IMG/VR virus record: IMGVR_UViG_3300002220_000062
Coordinates: 27,454 to 91,453 of that record
Origin: a virus
Lineage: Duplodnaviria > Caudoviricetes
DNA: 64,000 bases
Reading direction: 5' to 3' (one strand)
Part shown: piece after piece, positions 80-23,329 of the stretch
Numbering within the stretch: the stretch's first letter is position 1
Layout of the letters: each line of letters starts with the position of its first letter
Notes under the pieces: model-generated
The model's input: only the letters and a program-made list of their open reading frames with translations
The model's database searches: none
What the model was told of the DNA's origin: nothing
Translations under genes and position numbers: made by a program

Positions 80-688
80 ATGAGTAAAAGCTTAGTGCTG
101 AATTTTGAAGTACTAATGAATTTTAACATTTCTGTTGAGGAATTCTTATTCTTATATAATATATCGGAAGATAAACCATTACATAAGGAGAATATAGACT
201 TAGAAAAACTACAACAACAACAATTAATAAAAATAGTAACAGAAGACGAAGAAATAAAATATTTTTTAAGAGAAAAATCTATACAATTAATAGAATTTCT
301 GACAATAGAGATGGAAAATTCTTTAGAGTCAAGTGAAAAAAATATAAAAAAATCAAATCGTGTTATTAACCAGGAAATAGCTGGAAGAATAGAAGAATTT
401 AGAAACAAATGGAAAGGATTAAAATCTGGTTCTATGGGTAGCCAAAAATCTTGCCAAGTGAAATTACTAAGATGGATGAAAGAAAATCCAAGTTATTCAT
501 TTGATGACATTTTAAAAGCAGCTAATATCTATTTAGAAAGTTTGAATGGTGACTACAGATTTTTACAGCGAGCTGATTATTTCATATTTAAACAGGAAAA
601 TAATCGTGAGGAATCTTCTAGATTATCTGCATTTGTAGATGAGATAGGATTAACCAATACCGATGATTGGACTACAAATTTAAATTAA
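80..688 (+). CDS. Hypothetical protein upstream of the helicase, possibly replication initiator or helicase-loader-like
   Basis: 202-aa ORF; function inferred from position before the DnaB-like gene only. Confidence 0.5.
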   Translation: MSKSLVLNFEVLMNFNISVEEFLFLYNISEDKPLHKENIDLEKLQQQQLIKIVTEDEEIKYFLREKSIQLIEFLTIEMENSLESSEKNIKKSNRVINQEIAGRIEEFRNKWKGLKSGSMGSQKSCQVKLLRWMKENPSYSFDDILKAANIYLESLNGDYRFLQRADYFIFKQENNREESSRLSAFVDEIGLTNTDDWTTNLN

Positions 689-714
689 TAATATGAAAAA
701 CAACTTAAAGTAAA

Positions 715-870
715 ATGAGTTTATATACAAGAGTCTATGATGATATTGTAGATAGAAGAAAAAGGTTACTCAATGGGCAAATAAATTGCATCCCTTGGGG
801 ATTACCTAGATTTGAAAATGAATTACCTGGTATTGAACGAGGTAAGTATTATTTAATAACAGCAAATAGT
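715..870 (+). CDS. dnaB: DnaB-like replicative helicase, exon 1
   Basis: ATG at 715 reads MSLYTRVYDDIVDRRKRLLNGQINCIPWGLPRFENELPGIERGKYYLITANS, the usual DnaB segment leading into Walker A. It ends in U at 870 and the unspliced frame hits TAG at 874-876. Absent from the ORF track. Confidence 0.9.
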
Positions 871-1172
871 TTTTAGTTTATAATAATTTAATTTGTAAAC
901 AAACAGAAGCTACGCTAGATGGTGACATCTAGATGATTATCCTTTGAATTGCTGGAAACTCTTAACAAGTAATGTTGAAGACAATCAGCAGCCAAGCTTA
1001 GAAATAAGAAGGTTCAACGACTAGTGCAATAGAGCACGTACACTATAAGTTAATGATAGTGGAAGCGGAGGACATCTCTATGAGATGAAGATATAGTCTA
1101 GTCTATATGGAAACATATAGCAGTTCATAAGAGAACGTATATAAGAGTTACGTCTTATATAGAATATAAACG
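871..1172 (+). ncRNA. Group I intron 1 (IA-like, 302 nt, no ORF)
   Basis: P1 exon TAGT/GCTA (909-912) with U-G at the splice site; P2 CTAGATG-GTGA-CATCTAG; P3 TCCTTTG (940-946)/CGGAGGA (1066-1072); P4 TGCTG (950-954)/CAGCA (986-990); P7 GACTA (1019-1023)/TAGTC (1094-1098) with AAGATA J8/7; two extra hairpins after P7; P9 CTATATG-GAAA-CATATAG; terminal G1172. Confidence 0.92.
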
Positions 1173-1181
1173 AAAGTGGGT
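1173..1181 (+). CDS. dnaB: DnaB-like helicase, 9-nt micro-exon 2 (K-V-G)
   Basis: AAAGTGGGT follows the terminal G of intron 1, ends in U, and restores the Walker A sequence ANSKVGKT in frame. Confidence 0.88.
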
Positions 1182-1255
1182 AGAATTTGCCCCTCTGGTT
1201 AGTAATAATTAGAGCAAACTCAGAATCCTAGAAATAGGGGTTAATTAATAATTAA

Positions 1256-1813
1256 ATGGAAATAATAAAAGCAGGTCAAAAACCAAAAATGGGAGATTTT
1301 GTATATGTTGTACAAGATTATACTAGTTTTACATATAAAGATGCTAATGGTAATTGTAAACATTGTTATCTTGATAATATGTCTTCACTTTGTTACACCT
1401 TAAAAGATGCCGATGAAAAGAAACAAGCAGAAATACTTGAATTATTTAAAAGTATTTTTGATGTTAATTCAAAAGTTACCTTTGGTGTAAATCTAACAAG
1501 AATGGAGTATATTGAGACTCTTAAAAAACATTTTACTTTAATATCTTGTGTAGAAGTTCCAACAGGATATGGAACACGTCAGAAACAATATCATGCTATA
1601 TTTTTTACAAATTCTATGGCTAGAGATTATGGTGGTACTTATAGAGGTAGATTAAATAAAGAAGGTGTAATTGTAAGCACTATGAAACATAGGAAAACTA
1701 TAAATCCTGGTGATAAAATTGACACTGTAATTAATGAAAGTGATATTGAAAAGATAATGTCTTATAAGAGTAAATATCATCTACAAAAATTTCTTAGAAC
1801 AAAAATTAATTAG
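1256..1813 (+). CDS. Intron-2-encoded hypothetical protein A (between the P3 and P4 5' strands)
   Basis: 185-aa ORF with an A-rich leader; no HNH, GIY-YIG or LAGLIDADG motif seen; stop TAG abuts the P4 5' strand. Confidence 0.8.
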   Translation: MEIIKAGQKPKMGDFVYVVQDYTSFTYKDANGNCKHCYLDNMSSLCYTLKDADEKKQAEILELFKSIFDVNSKVTFGVNLTRMEYIETLKKHFTLISCVEVPTGYGTRQKQYHAIFFTNSMARDYGGTYRGRLNKEGVIVSTMKHRKTINPGDKIDTVINESDIEKIMSYKSKYHLQKFLRTKIN

Positions 1814-1847
1814 CTAACGGGGAAACCCTTTATAAAAATAAGTAAAA

Positions 1848-2147
1848 ATGAAAAAAACTACAACAGCGTGTTGTGCGTTATGTCAAATTAATAATGTAAA
1901 TAATGATACAACTATTGAAGAGTTAGAATATGCAATTGACATATTAACTAATCAGAAAGAGAAAAATACAGAAGTAGGTATTACAACAGGTAATGGACAA
2001 ACTTCAGTATTTGTTATAGTTTCTCCTGGAGAATATGTACTAAGTAGAAATCTAAAAAAATTAGGATTTGAACTTAAACACACATTTGAAAGAAGAAAAG
2101 GATATCCACCTGTTGGAGAATTAGAGATGTATATTAAAAATCTTTAA
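1848..2147 (+). CDS. Intron-2-encoded hypothetical protein B (P5 loop), possibly a degenerate GNAT-like fold
   Basis: 99-aa ORF; CCALCQI near the N-terminus and NLKKLGFELKHTF resembling the C-terminal GNAT motif; fold call is weak. Confidence 0.7.
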   Translation: MKKTTTACCALCQINNVNNDTTIEELEYAIDILTNQKEKNTEVGITTGNGQTSVFVIVSPGEYVLSRNLKKLGFELKHTFERRKGYPPVGELEMYIKNL

Positions 2148-2149
2148 TT

Positions 2150-2713
2150 ATGTGGGAGACTTATGAATGGGGAAGGTCAAGATATGACATTCTCTATAAA
2201 GATGGTAGTACAGAAAAGATAAAGAGTGCATGTTTTGCAGCACTTACTCGTACTACTAATAGCACAATTAAGCGTATAAAATTATATGATTTTAAATGTA
2301 AACCAACTATAGAATATCGTAAATGGTATTTAGAATATGTTAGTGATATGTTACAACTAGAAGAGGTAGAAATTACTGAAGACTATATAGCATTTGACGC
2401 ATATGATAATAAAAACAAAAATATGTTAGTATTATCATTATTTAGATTTTTATATGAACAACTTGGTTATGTTACACCTATAATTCAAACACATGAGGTA
2501 TTTTTAGAACCTTTAAGAAATGGAGAATGTGAATATATAGATAAATTAGAAAGATTTTGTTACTTCTATAGTAAAATAGAAACAAAAAAAGCTTATTATT
2601 CTACTATACATTCTTGGTATCCTAAAACTACTGTTATTAAATCAACAGAAGATTTCTTAAAGATTAAAAAACTACCATCTGTTAATTCATTTTTTACTTA
2701 TGAAAAAAACTAA
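2150..2713 (+). CDS. Intron-2-encoded hypothetical protein C (P5 loop)
   Basis: 187-aa ORF starting 2 nt after ORF B; its TAA is part of the P5 3' strand. Confidence 0.8.
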   Translation: MWETYEWGRSRYDILYKDGSTEKIKSACFAALTRTTNSTIKRIKLYDFKCKPTIEYRKWYLEYVSDMLQLEEVEITEDYIAFDAYDNKNKNMLVLSLFRFLYEQLGYVTPIIQTHEVFLEPLRNGECEYIDKLERFCYFYSKIETKKAYYSTIHSWYPKTTVIKSTEDFLKIKKLPSVNSFFTYEKN

Positions 2714-2978
2714 AGACAATCCCGTGCCGTCACTTGATTTTAATATAATAAAAACTAATACATTTAAAGAAGATGATGAAATATGTCATATAAGAAATTT
2801 TATGGTAGGTTTACCTTACTTTTTTAAAGCAACTGATTATGATGTAAAACATTATTCAGGAAAAAATGGTATTTATTTGTTAAAACAATACGGTGTAGAG
2901 ACTAACAATGAGAAACCTAAATCAGGACACATGACAGAAATATCATGGGGTAGTAAAAAACATCCTGATGAAGATTAG
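2700..2978 (+). CDS. Intron-2 ORF D overlapping the ribozyme core (P4' to P8)
   Basis: 92 codons open across P5', P4', P6, P7, P3' and P8; ATG overlaps the end of ORF C; the long P6 loop looks coding. Confidence 0.5.
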   Translation: MKKTKDNPVPSLDFNIIKTNTFKEDDEICHIRNFMVGLPYFFKATDYDVKHYSGKNGIYLLKQYGVETNNEKPKSGHMTEISWGSKKHPDED

Positions 2979-3065
2979 GTTTATGAGATAGTCCGAACTA
3001 TATGGTGACATATAGAGCCAAACAGAAATGATTTGGCTGTGAAAATTAAACAAAAATTAATAAAA

Positions 3066-3566
3066 ATGAAATTATATTTAAAAGATTATAAAAAAAAATC
3101 AACTACATGTGTAAAAAGTTTTTTATTAGATTATTATAAGAATGTTTTCAGTTTAGAAGGAACACCTGCTACATACTTTAGTCCTATATGTGACGAAAAA
3201 GATTTGCAATGTTCTGCTAGAAAATCACGTTCATTTACAGATATGTATTATTTAACTAAAACTTATTTTCCAACATTAACAGAAAAAACTTTTACTAAGA
3301 AATTAGTAGAAGTAATGAAAGTGCATAAGTTAAAATTCTTATTTTGTAATGGTGCAAAAAAAACAGTAATACATGCCAGTTTTGGTACTAATAATCAAAG
3401 AACAAGTAACTTTTTTAAGTCATTAGTATTTGATTATTGTGGTTTATTAAAGACTCAATATAATCTAAAAGGTAATGGAGAGCATTCTATAATAGATGTA
3501 ATAGAATTTTCTGGTTATAAAAATGATGTAATTGAAAAAGAACTTAACCGTTTAAGGAACACATAA
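3066..3566 (+). CDS. Intron-2-encoded hypothetical protein E (after P9.1)
   Basis: Likely start is ATG 3066 because the TTG at 3033 lies inside the P9.1 stem; no recognisable endonuclease motif; ends 8 nt before the 3' splice site. Confidence 0.78.
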   Translation: MKLYLKDYKKKSTTCVKSFLLDYYKNVFSLEGTPATYFSPICDEKDLQCSARKSRSFTDMYYLTKTYFPTLTEKTFTKKLVEVMKVHKLKFLFCNGAKKTVIHASFGTNNQRTSNFFKSLVFDYCGLLKTQYNLKGNGEHSIIDVIEFSGYKNDVIEKELNRLRNT

Positions 3567-3574
3567 CAAAATTG

Positions 3575-4510
3575 AAAACTCAAATAGCCGATTGGTTATT
3601 TTTGTACAATACTATTCAACAAGTTATTGAAAAATCTCTAAATATCAAATTAAAGATATTTTATTTTAGTTTAGAAATGTCTAAGGAAGAAAAGATGCTA
3701 GCAGCTTTCTCTAATATTATATATATTAAAGAAGGTATAAGAATAGCTCCAAAGGACCTTAGAAGTACTAAATCAGATAAAATATTAAGTGAAGAGACTT
3801 TAGAGTTAATATCAAAATATAAACCATATTTCGACAAAATTGAAGAAATAGTTGAATTTATAGATGATATTAGAAATCCCACAGGTATTTATAAATTTGT
3901 TAGAAGTTACGCTATTGCAAATGGTGTACAACATAAGAAAACTATAAATATTAAGGGTACATTAACAGAAATCGATGATTACTATGAACCAAACGACCCT
4001 GAAGAGTACGTTATGGTTTTTATTGACCATATAAGTTTGATTTCTACCGAGGAAGAAGGAGGACAAAAGATGAATTTGCATCAATCTATTGTCAAGCTTT
4101 CTTCAGATTACCTTATTAGATTACGAAATAAATATAAATACATTCCAGTTGTTATTCAACAACAAGCATCTGCTCAAGAATCCGTAGAGAATATGAAAGT
4201 CGGAAGACTTAAACCTTCAATGGATGGATTAGGAGACTGTAAGCTTACCCAAAGGGATGCAAATGTTATATTGGGACTATTTAGTCCTTTTCGTCATGAA
4301 TTAAGAGAATACCAAGGATATGATATTACCTTTTTTAAGGATAATATTAGATTTCTAGAAGTATTAGGTGGAAGAGAAGGTGGTGGTGGTACAGTATGTC
4401 CACTGTTCTTTGATGGAGCAGTGAATTATTTTAAAGAGTTACCAAAACCAATGGACCAAGAAGGGCTTAGAAGCGTTTATAGTTACATTGAGAAAACAAT
4501 TAAAAAATAA
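3575..4510 (+). CDS. dnaB: DnaB-like helicase, exon 3
   Basis: Begins KTQ (second half of Walker A); FYFSLEMS, VFIDHISLI (Walker B), VVIQQQ and QRDANVILGL match SF4 helicase motifs; spliced product is 366 aa. Confidence 0.92.
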   Translation, partial: KTQIADWLFLYNTIQQVIEKSLNIKLKIFYFSLEMSKEEKMLAAFSNIIYIKEGIRIAPKDLRSTKSDKILSEETLELISKYKPYFDKIEEIVEFIDDIRNPTGIYKFVRSYAIANGVQHKKTINIKGTLTEIDDYYEPNDPEEYVMVFIDHISLISTEEEGGQKMNLHQSIVKLSSDYLIRLRNKYKYIPVVIQQQASAQESVENMKVGRLKPSMDGLGDCKLTQRDANVILGLFSPFRHELREYQGYDITFFKDNIRFLEVLGGREGGGGTVCPLFFDGAVNYFKELPKPMDQEGLRSVYSYIEKTIKK

Positions 4511-4834
4511 ATGGGAGAATTAGGAGAGAGAAGAAATGAAGGAAAATTAAAATGGTCTTTAGTAAGTTGGAAAGCTTTAGAACCAATGGTTAAAGTATTA
4601 ATGTTCGGAGCAGAAAAATACGATGACCACAATTGGAAGAAAGGACTGAATTACACTGAAACGTGTGAATCTTTACAAAGACATTTAAATTCTTTTATTG
4701 AAGGAGAGGATAATGACCAGGAATCTGGCATTCCCCATGTAGGACACATTCTATGTAATGCAATGTTTTTATCGTATATGTCTAAATATAGAAAAGACTT
4801 AGATGATAGATTTATTGATGAAAACTTCAAATAA
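4511..4834 (+). CDS. dATP/dGTP diphosphohydrolase-domain protein (DUF5664-like)
   Basis: GKLKWSLV, VLMFGAEKYDDHNWKKG, SLQRHL and DQESGIPHVGHILCNAMFL family pattern. Confidence 0.8.
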   Translation: MGELGERRNEGKLKWSLVSWKALEPMVKVLMFGAEKYDDHNWKKGLNYTETCESLQRHLNSFIEGEDNDQESGIPHVGHILCNAMFLSYMSKYRKDLDDRFIDENFK

Positions 4835-9972: not shown

Positions 9973-10002
9973 AAAAAATATTAAAATAAAAATAACAAAA
10001 AG

Positions 10003-10812
10003 ATGATTAAAAATGTAACATTGGGTGCAGACCCTGAATTATTTTTAGAAAAAGACGGAGAAGTCGTTTCCGCAGAAGGATTAATTGGAGGGACTAAAGA
10101 AGAACCAAAAGCAATTAGTGAAGAAGGACATTGTATTCAAGAAGACAATGTAATGATTGAATTTAATATTCCAGCCTCTAAAACAGCAGTTGAATTTAGA
10201 GACAATATTAACTTTGTTAAGGATTATTTATCAGCATTAGCAACAATACAGGGAGGAAAATTAAATTTCTCTGCTTCTGCTGAACTTGATACTAAGTATC
10301 TTCAAACAGACCAAGCTAAATTGTTTGGTTGTGACCCTGATTATAGTGTACATTTAAAACGTCAAAATACTCCACCAGAATCAACAGGTTCTTTAAGAAC
10401 TTGTGGAGGTCATATTCATGTTGGCTATGATAATCCTTCTCAAGAAGTAAGTGAGAAAATTATCTATGCTATGGATTTTGTATTAGGGCTTGAGTCAATT
10501 AATTTAGACCCAGATGATAGAAGAAGAGAAATGTATGGTAATGCTGGATGCTTTAGATTTAAAGAATATGGTGTTGAATACAGAACTTTATCTAATTTTT
10601 GGATTACAACAAATGAATTAATGGAATGGGCATTTAATAGTACATTAAAAGCAATTGAATTAGTTAATTCAGGTGTAATTGATTTATTGATTAAAGATTA
10701 TGCAAAAGCAGTTAAAATTGTTATTGATAACAATGATAAAGAAGCTGCAAAATTATTACTAAAAGTAGTAAATAAAATAATAGAAAAAAAATTAGTAACA
10801 ATAGAAAAATAA
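10003..10812 (+). CDS. phiEco32-like COOH-NH2 ligase type 2
   Basis: LGADPELFL, QEDNVMIEFN, FGCDPD, RTCGGHIHVG, RREMYG, YGVEYRTLSNFW. Confidence 0.9.
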   Translation: MIKNVTLGADPELFLEKDGEVVSAEGLIGGTKEEPKAISEEGHCIQEDNVMIEFNIPASKTAVEFRDNINFVKDYLSALATIQGGKLNFSASAELDTKYLQTDQAKLFGCDPDYSVHLKRQNTPPESTGSLRTCGGHIHVGYDNPSQEVSEKIIYAMDFVLGLESINLDPDDRRREMYGNAGCFRFKEYGVEYRTLSNFWITTNELMEWAFNSTLKAIELVNSGVIDLLIKDYAKAVKIVIDNNDKEAAKLLLKVVNKIIEKKLVTIEK

Positions 10813-22918: not shown

Positions 22919-23329
22919 ATGGAATTAGAACAAGTTACACAACCAATAAAAGAGGTTAAAAAAGAACCAAATTTTGAAAAAACATTATTAAAGGATAACC
23001 CATATGATGAGAATTATAAATTTCTAATTAAAAGAAAAGATGGTTATAAATTTATGTTATACACAATTAAGTATCCTACAAATAATTGTCAACTTTCTTC
23101 AATTGGAAATGCAAATGATTTACTACAAATACCAGAAGGTGATATTGTTGAAGTTATACATGCTATTAGGAAGGGCACTTGTAATATGGTAATTATGGAT
23201 ATTAGAGATTCTTATCTTGTAAAGTTAAAAAAATTCTTTGAACCATTTGGAGAATTTAGATTAGAGTCACCATATAAAAGTTCAAATGGTAGTAGTATGG
23301 TAATACTTATTTTAAAATGGAACATATAA
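22919..23329 (+). CDS. Hypothetical protein, possible distant relative of intron ORF A
   Basis: 136-aa ORF; see findings. Confidence 0.7.
   Translation: MELEQVTQPIKEVKKEPNFEKTLLKDNPYDENYKFLIKRKDGYKFMLYTIKYPTNNCQLSSIGNANDLLQIPEGDIVEVIHAIRKGTCNMVIMDIRDSYLVKLKKFFEPFGEFRLESPYKSSNGSSMVILILKWNI

Follow-up and report, generated by a model that had tools for sequence, protein, structure and literature searches.

A probable giant group I intron with ORFs in several ribozyme loops in the helicase gene of a crAss-like phage

Group I introns of phages, such as those in T4 td, nrdB and sunY/nrdD and those of SPO1 and Twort, typically carry at most one open reading frame (ORF), for a homing endonuclease, in a peripheral loop. 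Here, we describe a 64,000-nt window of viral DNA (part of the 91-kb virus record IMGVR_UViG_3300002220_000062) in which positions 1182-3574, lying within a predicted replicative helicase gene of a crAss-like phage, probably form a single giant group I intron (intron 2) that holds the ORFs A, B, C, D, and E; all coordinates refer to this window, and all listed features are on its + strand. Like the classical phage introns (T4, SPO1, Twort), this element would be of the self-splicing type and sits in a conserved DNA-metabolism gene of a phage, its ORFs are found in peripheral loops or in the 3' tail, some of its relatives hold LAGLIDADG or GIY-YIG genes, and natural alleles with and without the neighboring intron (intron 1) coexist. 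It differs from them in that the members of its family are 2-3 kb long and distribute 3-6 ORFs among as many as five sites (rather than having no ORF or one), in that most of these ORFs have no nuclease signature and a conserved frame runs through the catalytic core, and in that it has extra hairpins between P3 and P4 and an Rfam score under the cut-off.

Gene-carrying group I introns are also known from elsewhere. IStrons are bacterial group I introns fused to IS605/IS607 elements encoding TnpA and TnpB (PMC10690162); as in the present case, these prokaryotic group I introns carry two or more genes other than classical homing endonuclease genes, and the IStron ORFs, like ORF E, are located 3' of the core. 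Unlike IStrons, the phage intron has no TnpA/TnpB and no transposon ends (Pfam finds none, and a Pfam scan of ∼30 intron ORFs from the window and its relatives returned no transposase or TnpB domain), its genes alternate with segments of the core instead of following it, its host is a phage genome, and its insertion sites, located in replication genes, resemble homing sites. The giant group I intron ND5-717 of hexacoral mitochondria, fixed in an essential gene and with several non-endonuclease genes in a peripheral segment (PMC6545197), offers a likeness without implied homology, namely a giant group I intron in an essential gene with several ordinary, non-endonuclease genes inside. In ND5-717, P8 contains all of the cargo, which is made up of core mitochondrial genes; the last nucleotide of that intron is A instead of G, and in corallimorpharians it is removed by back-splicing. 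The phage intron, by contrast, distributes its cargo of accessory, variable genes among several loops and retains a terminal G.

In its passages on introns and on the helicase, the Crassvirales survey of Yutin et al. 2021 (PMC7886860) reports group I introns in core genes for replication and structure, which were detected by the signatures of endonuclease domains, for the most part in the Delta and Zeta groups; these passages do not mention the present helicase intron. The literature searched, which is incomplete in coverage, contains neither a phage group I intron with several non-endonuclease genes across several loops nor the helicase intron of Cellulophaga phage phi14:2. Within that literature, what is new is the multi-loop, multi-gene layout in a phage, and what was already known is the presence of group I introns in crAss-like phages and of gene-carrying group I introns elsewhere. 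A preliminary description of this DNA, made from its letters, knew of no earlier account of the arrangement; that it is undescribed holds for phages and for the multi-loop layout in the literature searched but not in general, as IStrons and ND5-717 precede it.

The split helicase gene and its dispersed group I core

The product of 3575-4510 has its best relatives in Crassvirales, with 54% identity to phi14:2 and 44-50% identity to gut crAss-like phages, in which it carries the annotation replicative DNA helicase; as judged by this similarity, the split gene is the replicative (DnaB-type) helicase of a crAss-like phage. In BLASTP comparisons with the uninterrupted cr108_1 helicase, exon 1 (715-870) corresponds to residues 1-52 (52% identity, E 8e-19) and exon 3 (3575-4507) to residues 56-365 (50% identity, E 2e-91). 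A micro-exon, AAAGTGGGT, encoding KVG, exactly fills the remaining residues 53-55 (KIG) of the cr108_1 homologue, which reads ...FSANSKIGKTQIAD... across the junction region; because these KIG residues correspond to AAAGTGGGT, the coding sequence of the Walker A loop is divided among exon 1, the micro-exon, and exon 3. ANSKVG or ANSKIG is contiguous with exon 1 in phi14:2 and eight contigs, and exon 1 together with the 9-nt micro-exon is kept in all intron-bearing relatives. Read without splicing, the ORF at 715-876 terminates with ...YYLITANSF, the long ORF from 3572 opens with (L)KTQIADW, and a product made from 3572 alone would lack 55 residues at its N terminus as well as the first half of the P-loop.

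The preliminary description had placed a group I core over 1182-3574, and every element that it named is found within a few bases of the position it gave (Table 1), with support from relatives, covariation, and the protein junction. Using a 16-mer within the P4'/P6 block as bait, we retrieved 32 IMG/VR stretches, ∼24 of which share the flanking sequence and, 25-172 nt further downstream, contain a P6'/P7 block; related loci are labeled L001-L034, L001 being phi14:2 (NC_021806). The core blocks stand in the same order in phi14:2 and ∼24 viral contigs, and the layout is common to about a dozen related environmental phages. Conserved blocks collinear between the window and phi14:2 lie at 1173-1274, 1816-1865, 2713-2737 (identical over 25 nt), and 2871-2918, and the ORFs between them have no detectable nucleotide similarity in this comparison. 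Group I core topology is present, i.e., a P4-P5-P6 stack, a P3/P7 pseudoknot, and P8 between P3' and P7'.

Covariation was scored for P1 and P2 over 14 aligned copies against 500 shuffles and slid controls, and the long-range pairs (P3, P7, and P8) were tallied by script, P3 over 14 loci and P7 over 23. In P1, three of the four pairs have compensatory changes that track the host exons (GGGU/GCCC, GCGU/GCGC, CCGU/GCGG, and GGAU/GUCC), and the U.G pair at the 5' splice site is present in 14/14 copies. The P2 stems differ widely in sequence among copies and retain the GUAA tetraloop. Over P1 and the inner six P2 pairs, 96% of cells are paired and nine of ten pairs change on both sides; the observed values were reached by none of the 500 shuffles, and the score was 0.58 as compared with 0.03-0.13 for the slid controls. 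P3/P3', the strands of which are 1.7 kb apart in the window, is complete in 13/14 loci with eight distinct fully paired combinations (e.g., CUCA/UGAG, UUCC/GGAA, CACC/GGUG, and CUUC/GAAG). P7/P7' is paired in all 23 loci in three variants (GACUA/UAGUC, GACUG/CAGUC, and GGCCA/UGGUC), P8 has compensated variants among relatives, and for P9 and P9.1 together 94% of cells are paired, with a covariation score that 0/500 shuffles reached. P4 and P6 are uninformative on covariation because they are invariant; P5 is AU-rich, with paired changes read by eye in two cases only (L020 and L024). At the 3' end, a terminal G directly precedes the helicase K-T/S-Q codons in 16/16 helicase-hosted copies, and a UAACAAA-type motif lies just before it in 15 of them, the exception being phi14:2; the window version of this terminal motif is UAACAAAAUUG.

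Two peripheral hairpins lie between P3 and P4. The one at 1227-1238 is kept in L004, L005, L011, and L027, with stem variants (read by eye) in L023 and L030, and L020 has a hairpin resembling it near its 3' end. The second one holds ORF A in its loop in the window; in L005, it is free of any ORF and closed, with 7 bp and a 4-nt loop, and the window duplex that flanks ORF A has a predicted energy of -12.0 kcal/mol, as compared with -9.7 for the 5% shuffle tail.

The gathering score of the Rfam Intron_gpI model (RF00028) is 50 bits, a detection threshold and not a defining property of group I introns. In E-value mode, the window copy gives a partial match over 2865-3015 (29.3 bits, E 8e-5) that covers P8, J8/7, P7', and P9. 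The compact relative L010, with short P5, P6, and P8 loops, reaches 47.3 bits (E 4e-11) over an alignment that extends from P4 to P9, its P4/P5 block falling on P4 and P5 of the model; its P3 5' strand is 840 nt upstream and makes no contribution to the score. Because L010 aligns helix for helix to Intron_gpI, we conclude that the map of the core given in the preliminary description is right. At the gathering threshold, no group I match was obtained in 12 relatives, and the phi14:2 locus gave none at E <= 0.1.

The loop of P9.1, CAGAAAUGA (3023-3031), is invariant in eight copies while the stem below it changes completely; it may make a tertiary contact, although no partner for it was found.

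ORFs of the intron and of its relatives

ORFs A-E are all intact and co-oriented. The preliminary description had distributed them over the ribozyme loops, and its placement stands for B and C (in the P5 loop) and for E (after P9.1), whereas ORF A, which it had put between P3 and P4, sits there in the loop of the second extra hairpin and not in a plain junction. Its remark that the stop codons of A, C, and D abut or fall within structural elements is borne out, and the same is true of E: the stop of A is in the 3' strand of the stem that closes the ORF A loop, that of C in P5', that of D in P8', and that of E in the conserved 3'-terminal motif. The B stop and the C start are separated by 2 nt and C overlaps D, a spacing that suggests coupled translation. 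Searches with Pfam and PHROGs gave no significant match for any of the five ORFs and detected no HNH, GIY-YIG, or LAGLIDADG domain in them, in agreement with the preliminary reading by eye. Ratios of nonsynonymous to synonymous substitution rates (dN/dS), computed against the closest relative L004, are 0.45 for A, 0.11 for B, 0.27 for C, and 0.55 for E, with 0.11 for helicase exon 3, and dS in the intron ORFs is two to three times that of exon 3; by these dN/dS values, A, B, C, and E are coding and under constraint, which is strong for B and C.

ORF A belongs to a family of 10 proteins and has homologues at the same site in L004, L027, and L023; at least seven ORFs without detected similarity to it occupy this site in other relatives, and the Atlas gave no usable match. 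ORF B is a member of a family of at least 243 proteins of ∼100 aa without a Pfam domain. Its AlphaFold2 model has a predicted local distance difference test (pLDDT) score of 88, and in VIA-align 85/99 residues superpose on residues ∼66-165 of GNAT acetyltransferases (Z 10.2, root-mean-square deviation [rmsd] 2.6), with GNATs making up nearly all of the top 50 rows of the structural search; by this model, the ORF B fold is that of the C-terminal, acetyl-CoA-binding half of a GNAT acetyltransferase. Because it has 99 aa, ORF B is too short for a whole GNAT and has no N-terminal half. Sequence matches of ORF B to designed armadillo repeats in the PDB were judged compositional, as no single stretch passes alone. 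A diverged ORF B homologue is found in L012 outside any recognizable intron core.

The ORF C family has 31 proteins, and its model (pLDDT 92.5) gives, in an exhaustive search of the PDB, a best structural match with Z 5.0 to unrelated folds; its BFVD matches (E 8e-5, TM 0.5) are uncharacterized proteins of crAss-like and other phages. The structure searches with the B and C models thus returned no nuclease fold above noise and gave no sign that these two ORFs are fragments of known homing endonucleases, an outcome that the preliminary description had named as one that would overturn its reading. Kinship of ORF C with the COOH-NH2 ligase of the window (9985-10809) or with a cr108_1 hypothetical protein was considered, and the comparison gave no relation. 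The ORF E family comprises 1723 representative clusters without a Pfam or PHROG name, with a homologue at the same site in L004 and free-standing homologues in L022, L005, L027, and L011; a GNAT-like assignment of ORF E was discarded, the Atlas rows at 0.86-0.88 being under the level for more than a lead. PDB sequence searches with ORFs C and E gave no meaningful match. BLASTP and phmmer found no paralogues of ORFs A-E elsewhere in the window, hhalign gave a probability of 3.6% for ORF A against ORF B, and ORF E had no match to ORF B. A resemblance of ORFs A and B to the gene at 22919-23329 was likewise rejected, the hhalign probabilities of 7-9% being without significance.

ORF D runs across the core, and the preliminary description had already noted this. 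In relatives, the frame is kept open and hence is not incidental: it is open through the core in 19/20 distinct loci and, over the 2043 nt of P6 loops from these loci, has a single stop, as compared with 71 and 135 in the other two frames. Because it is near stop-free in relatives where the other frames are not, the ORF D frame is evidently maintained. The P8 loops are likewise stop-free in this frame save in L004 and L034, where an endonuclease gene is inserted, and in L017; in compact copies, the frame begins in the P5 loop, and its stop lies within P8' or directly beyond it. Translation of the RNA core itself yields the conserved peptides DNPVPSL and NGVETN.E.P: the core blocks within ORF D are invariant at synonymous positions and the flanking parts vary freely, and the loop-encoded parts have protein-like conservation in subsets of copies. 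The C-terminal parts of the core-spanning frame are often Cys-rich.

Across the family, the 11 complete copies in helicase genes range in length from 1946 to 2946 nt, with 3-6 ORFs each (counted at >=60 aa) at sites of five kinds: between P2/P3 and P4, in the P5 loop, in P7-P3' or the P8 loop, in the P9 loop or the 3' tail, and as the core-spanning frame. Each site occurs ORF-free in some relative (P3 to P4 in L005, L5/L6/L8 in L010, and the 3' end in L020), and the ORFs therefore appear to be insertions into a once compact ribozyme. The comparison of related phage loci that the preliminary description had called for thus gives the same intron with fewer or different ORFs at the same structural sites. 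The closest relative, L004, has counterparts of A, B, C, and E that are 58-90% identical at the protein level and, in addition, a LAGLIDADG_2 gene between P7 and P3' (E 3e-38). LAGLIDADG_2 genes are present in the introns of L004, L027, and L034 (E from 3e-38 to 1e-18); these genes apart, ∼20 further intron ORFs of relatives had no Pfam match above the curated cut-off. Because these three relatives carry LAGLIDADG genes, the window copy is best read as the copy without an endonuclease gene of a mobile intron family. As mobility of the intron would predict, the same core is also found in SF2-helicase, PolB, and DnaG-primase genes and in a further DnaB-like gene, and the copies in other host genes lack ORFs B and C altogether. 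The preliminary description had seen the intron as a gene-capture platform; ORF turnover at the same sites, where relatives have different and mostly unannotated ORFs, and the free-standing homologues of E and of diverged B support this in part. The family is not free of homing endonucleases, as L004, L027, and L034 show.

In phi14:2, exon 1 (g024) ends in ANSKVG, giving the same intron start, and the helicase resumes ∼2.6 kb later, with g025-g028 between. In the record (217-3942), DnaB is given as the 280-aa g029, exon 1 as the hypothetical g024, and the intron ORFs g025-g028 as hypothetical, g027 being the frame through the ribozyme core; the intron is unannotated. A recurrent ORF family of ∼205-228 aa (starting with M..I.CIN.K.Y and ending with NPNSGN..FW...) is found in the 3' tail of several copies, without a Pfam match; its members are at 3377-4048 in L024, 2356-2967 in L001, 8527-9210 in L030, and in an upstream ORF of L015.

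Proposed mechanism and alternative explanations

We propose that the core is one of ordinary topology, cut into six blocks by ORFs at peripheral positions, and that the pre-mRNA would fold via long-range P3, P4, P5, and loop-closing stems. Guanosine-initiated self-splicing, perhaps with protein help given pairings 0.6-1.7 kb apart, would remove both introns and join ...ANS, KVG, and KTQ..., rebuilding the Walker A loop in a helicase of ∼366 aa. ORFs A, B, C, and E would be accessory passengers, tolerated because the loops are spliced out, and either the precursor or the excised intron could serve as their mRNA; with ORFs so closely packed, D included, their translation would interact with RNA folding. 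More speculatively, near-continuous translation might protect the long intron from premature termination or time splicing. In a wider version of this proposal, which strikes us as possible but doubtful, the introns would be an unrecognized phage group I lineage that serves as a stable multi-site gene holder in essential replication genes, with the loops as safe harbors in which genes are gained and lost; ORF D and the packed ORFs would couple translation to ribozyme folding, and helicase production would be timed against the intron genes, or the 2.4-kb intron shielded from premature transcription termination.

That 1182-3574 is a single giant group I intron in a crAss-like helicase gene, with A, B, C, and E as passenger genes and self-splicing predicted from its sequence, is in our judgment probable, and we hold it with good confidence. 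Some observations weigh against it: the 50-bit Rfam cut-off is reached neither by the window copy nor by the compact L010, and four other relatives gave no Rfam match at E <= 0.01; P3 has just 4 bp and is separated from P4 by two hairpins, features that are unusual among group I introns; the strands of P3, P4, and P5 have to find each other over 0.6-1.7 kb of RNA under translation, which may be kinetically difficult unless a cofactor helps; splicing is a prediction from the letters of the DNA; there may be a cryptic nuclease or maturase among ORFs A and E; and the tight conservation of B and C in the intron family could mean that they serve the intron itself. In an alternative explanation, which we consider rather unlikely, the intron is real and some or all of its ORFs are its own machinery (a new homing nuclease, a DNA-targeting factor, or a maturase), the B-C pair or D being the likeliest candidates. 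At least six helicase-hosted copies do have B and C together in their P5 loop, B and C being at the low dN/dS values given above, the D frame is open through nearly every core, the core has reached at least five different host genes while most copies have no recognizable endonuclease, and a giant intron with pairings over more than 1 kb plausibly needs a protein cofactor. Among the weak Foldseek rows for ORF C there are also many LAGLIDADG enzymes, but these have TM ∼0.2, rmsd >14, and E >0.05, and the best exhaustive match is to unrelated folds; B has the fold of an acetyl-CoA-binding half of a GNAT rather than of a nuclease, the diverged B homologue of L012 and several E homologues are free-standing, away from intron cores, and copies in other host genes do without B and C.

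It is very improbable that the locus is a decayed relic without splicing, the helicase being a pseudogene or expressed as fragments and the phage relying on another helicase. Splicing is indeed predicted rather than observed, the window copy has lost its endonuclease gene, as expected late in an intron life cycle, and its Rfam score is low; yet exon 3 is under strong purifying selection, exon 1 and the micro-exon persist in all intron-bearing relatives, the terminal G is retained in all helicase-hosted copies and the terminal motif in all but phi14:2, and compensatory changes keep the core helices paired across distant phages, a pairing that a dead ribozyme would not maintain. A reading without any giant intron, in which the helicase is made as two fragments, each translated on its own, with free-standing genes between them, and in which the conserved blocks are promoters, terminators, or coding motifs of ORF D, would draw on the position of these blocks within an open frame with conserved peptides and on the annotation of phi14:2, where a 280-aa DnaB stands beside the hypothetical genes g024-g028. 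It is, however, close to refuted by covariation, since the helices covary even where the strands are 1.7 kb apart, and it fares no better with the synonymous positions of the blocks (invariant, while the flanks of D vary freely), with a break inside the Walker A loop for which the micro-exon supplies exactly three residues, with the fit of L010 to the group I model, or with the LAGLIDADG genes inside relatives' copies. Because the relatives share block order, strong covariation, and an exact protein-level junction, chance is excluded. The preliminary claim of a single giant group I intron, as against separate genes between two helicase fragments, is supported.

If splicing of the giant intron is true, phage group I introns exceed a ribozyme with at most one homing endonuclease, as several unrelated genes can be held in several loops, and such introns would be a new kind of accessory-gene hotspot in phage genomes. 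They would also provide a natural test of ribozyme folding with translated strands up to 1.7 kb apart and a frame through the core. A cultured host exists for phi14:2. Annotation would be corrected as well, since phi14:2 and many marine crAss-like contigs record a truncated DnaB and hypothetical genes. Introns of this family are missed both by the standard Rfam search and by searches for endonuclease domains.

Feature coordinates and the neighboring intron 1

Table 1. Features of the split helicase gene and of the predicted introns, in window coordinates
Feature	Position	Strand	Basis or remark
Helicase exon 1	715..871	+	52 codons, ends ...ITANS
Intron 1, compact group I intron without ORF	872..1172	+	Rfam Intron_gpI 99.5 bits, E 7e-26, over 872-1120
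Micro-exon AAAGTGGGT, 9 nt, K-V-G	1173..1181	+	Middle of Walker A loop
Predicted intron 2, 2393-nt group I intron, ORFs in peripheral loops	1182..3574	+	Protein homology, 5' U.G, terminal G
P1: exon GGGU with internal guide GCCC	1178-1181 with 1189-1192, loop 1182-1188	+	U1181.G1189 at splice site
P2, 9 bp, GUAA tetraloop	1193..1214	+	All 6 inner pairs compensatory, 100% of cells paired
P3 5' strand CUCA	1219..1222	+	Pairs with UGAG 2909-2912; followed by invariant GAAU
Peripheral hairpin, GAAA tetraloop	1227..1238	+	Between P3 and P4
Second peripheral hairpin, ORF A in loop	1240..1814 (stem 1240-1249 with 1805-1814)	+	Closed and ORF-free in L005
ORF A, 185 aa	1256..1813	+	Loop of second hairpin between P3 and P4
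P4 5' strand 1817-1821, J4/5, P5 5' strand 1827-1832	1817..1832	+	Block kept in all relatives
ORF B, 99 aa	1848..2147	+	P5 loop
ORF C, 187 aa	2150..2713	+	P5 loop
ORF D, 92 aa	2700..2978	+	Reads P5', P4', P6, P7, P3', P8; stop in P8'
P5' 2711-2716, J5/4, P4' 2721-2725, P6 5' strand 2726-2730	2711..2730	+	Identity with phi14:2
P6' 2890-2894, P7 2900-2904, P3' 2909-2912	2890..2912	+	Covariation (P3, P7)
P8 2914-2927 with 2963-2981; J8/7; P7' 2989-2993	2914..2993	+	Covariation
P9, GUGA tetraloop	2998-3015	+	94% of cells paired (P9 and P9.1 together)
P9.1, conserved 9-nt loop CAGAAAUGA	3016-3038	+	5/6 pairs compensatory
ORF E, 166 aa from ATG 3066 (or TTG 3033)	3066..3566	+	Between P9.1 and 3' splice site
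Conserved 3'-terminal motif UAACAAAAUUG, ending in terminal G3574	3564..3574	+	Contains ORF E stop
Helicase exon 3	3575..4510	+	Starts KTQIAD...

Intron 1 ends 9 nt upstream of the giant intron, such that the Walker A loop is cut by two tandem introns around the micro-exon. A 40-nt insertion between its P7 and P3' suggests P7.1/P7.2, i.e., an IA2-like intron. The tandem arrangement is common to the window, L004, and L011, while phi14:2 and most other relatives have the giant intron only; the L004 equivalent of intron 1 holds a GIY-YIG + NUMOD1 gene, whereas intron 1 of the window has no endonuclease gene. An Rfam search of the whole window at the gathering threshold gave no match, missing also intron 1, which was detected on a short stretch in E-value mode. 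Because intron 1 scores 99.5 bits in that mode, the blank result is a filter effect and not absence, which shows that the Rfam speed filters lose true matches in AT-rich DNA (25-30% GC).

A DNA contig of run X9 joins 870 to 1173 and is a natural allele without exactly intron 1; an intron-less allele is cleanly seen for intron 1 only. Run X12, labeled RNA-Seq and probably DNA, contains no joint of 871 to 1173 or of 1181 to 3575. A DNA contig of run X2 (hydrocarbon metagenome) follows the window as far as 818 and picks it up again at 3711, a skipped length of 2892 that equals both introns and ∼198 nt of divergent exon and would fit an intron-less helicase allele, the intervening letters not being given.

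On the 3' side, the helicase gene is adjoined by a gene at 4511-4834 with a dATP/dGTP diphosphohydrolase N-terminal domain (Pfam PF18909, E 3e-32). In L011, the counterpart of this gene is followed by a free-standing homologue of ORF E that is translationally coupled to it.

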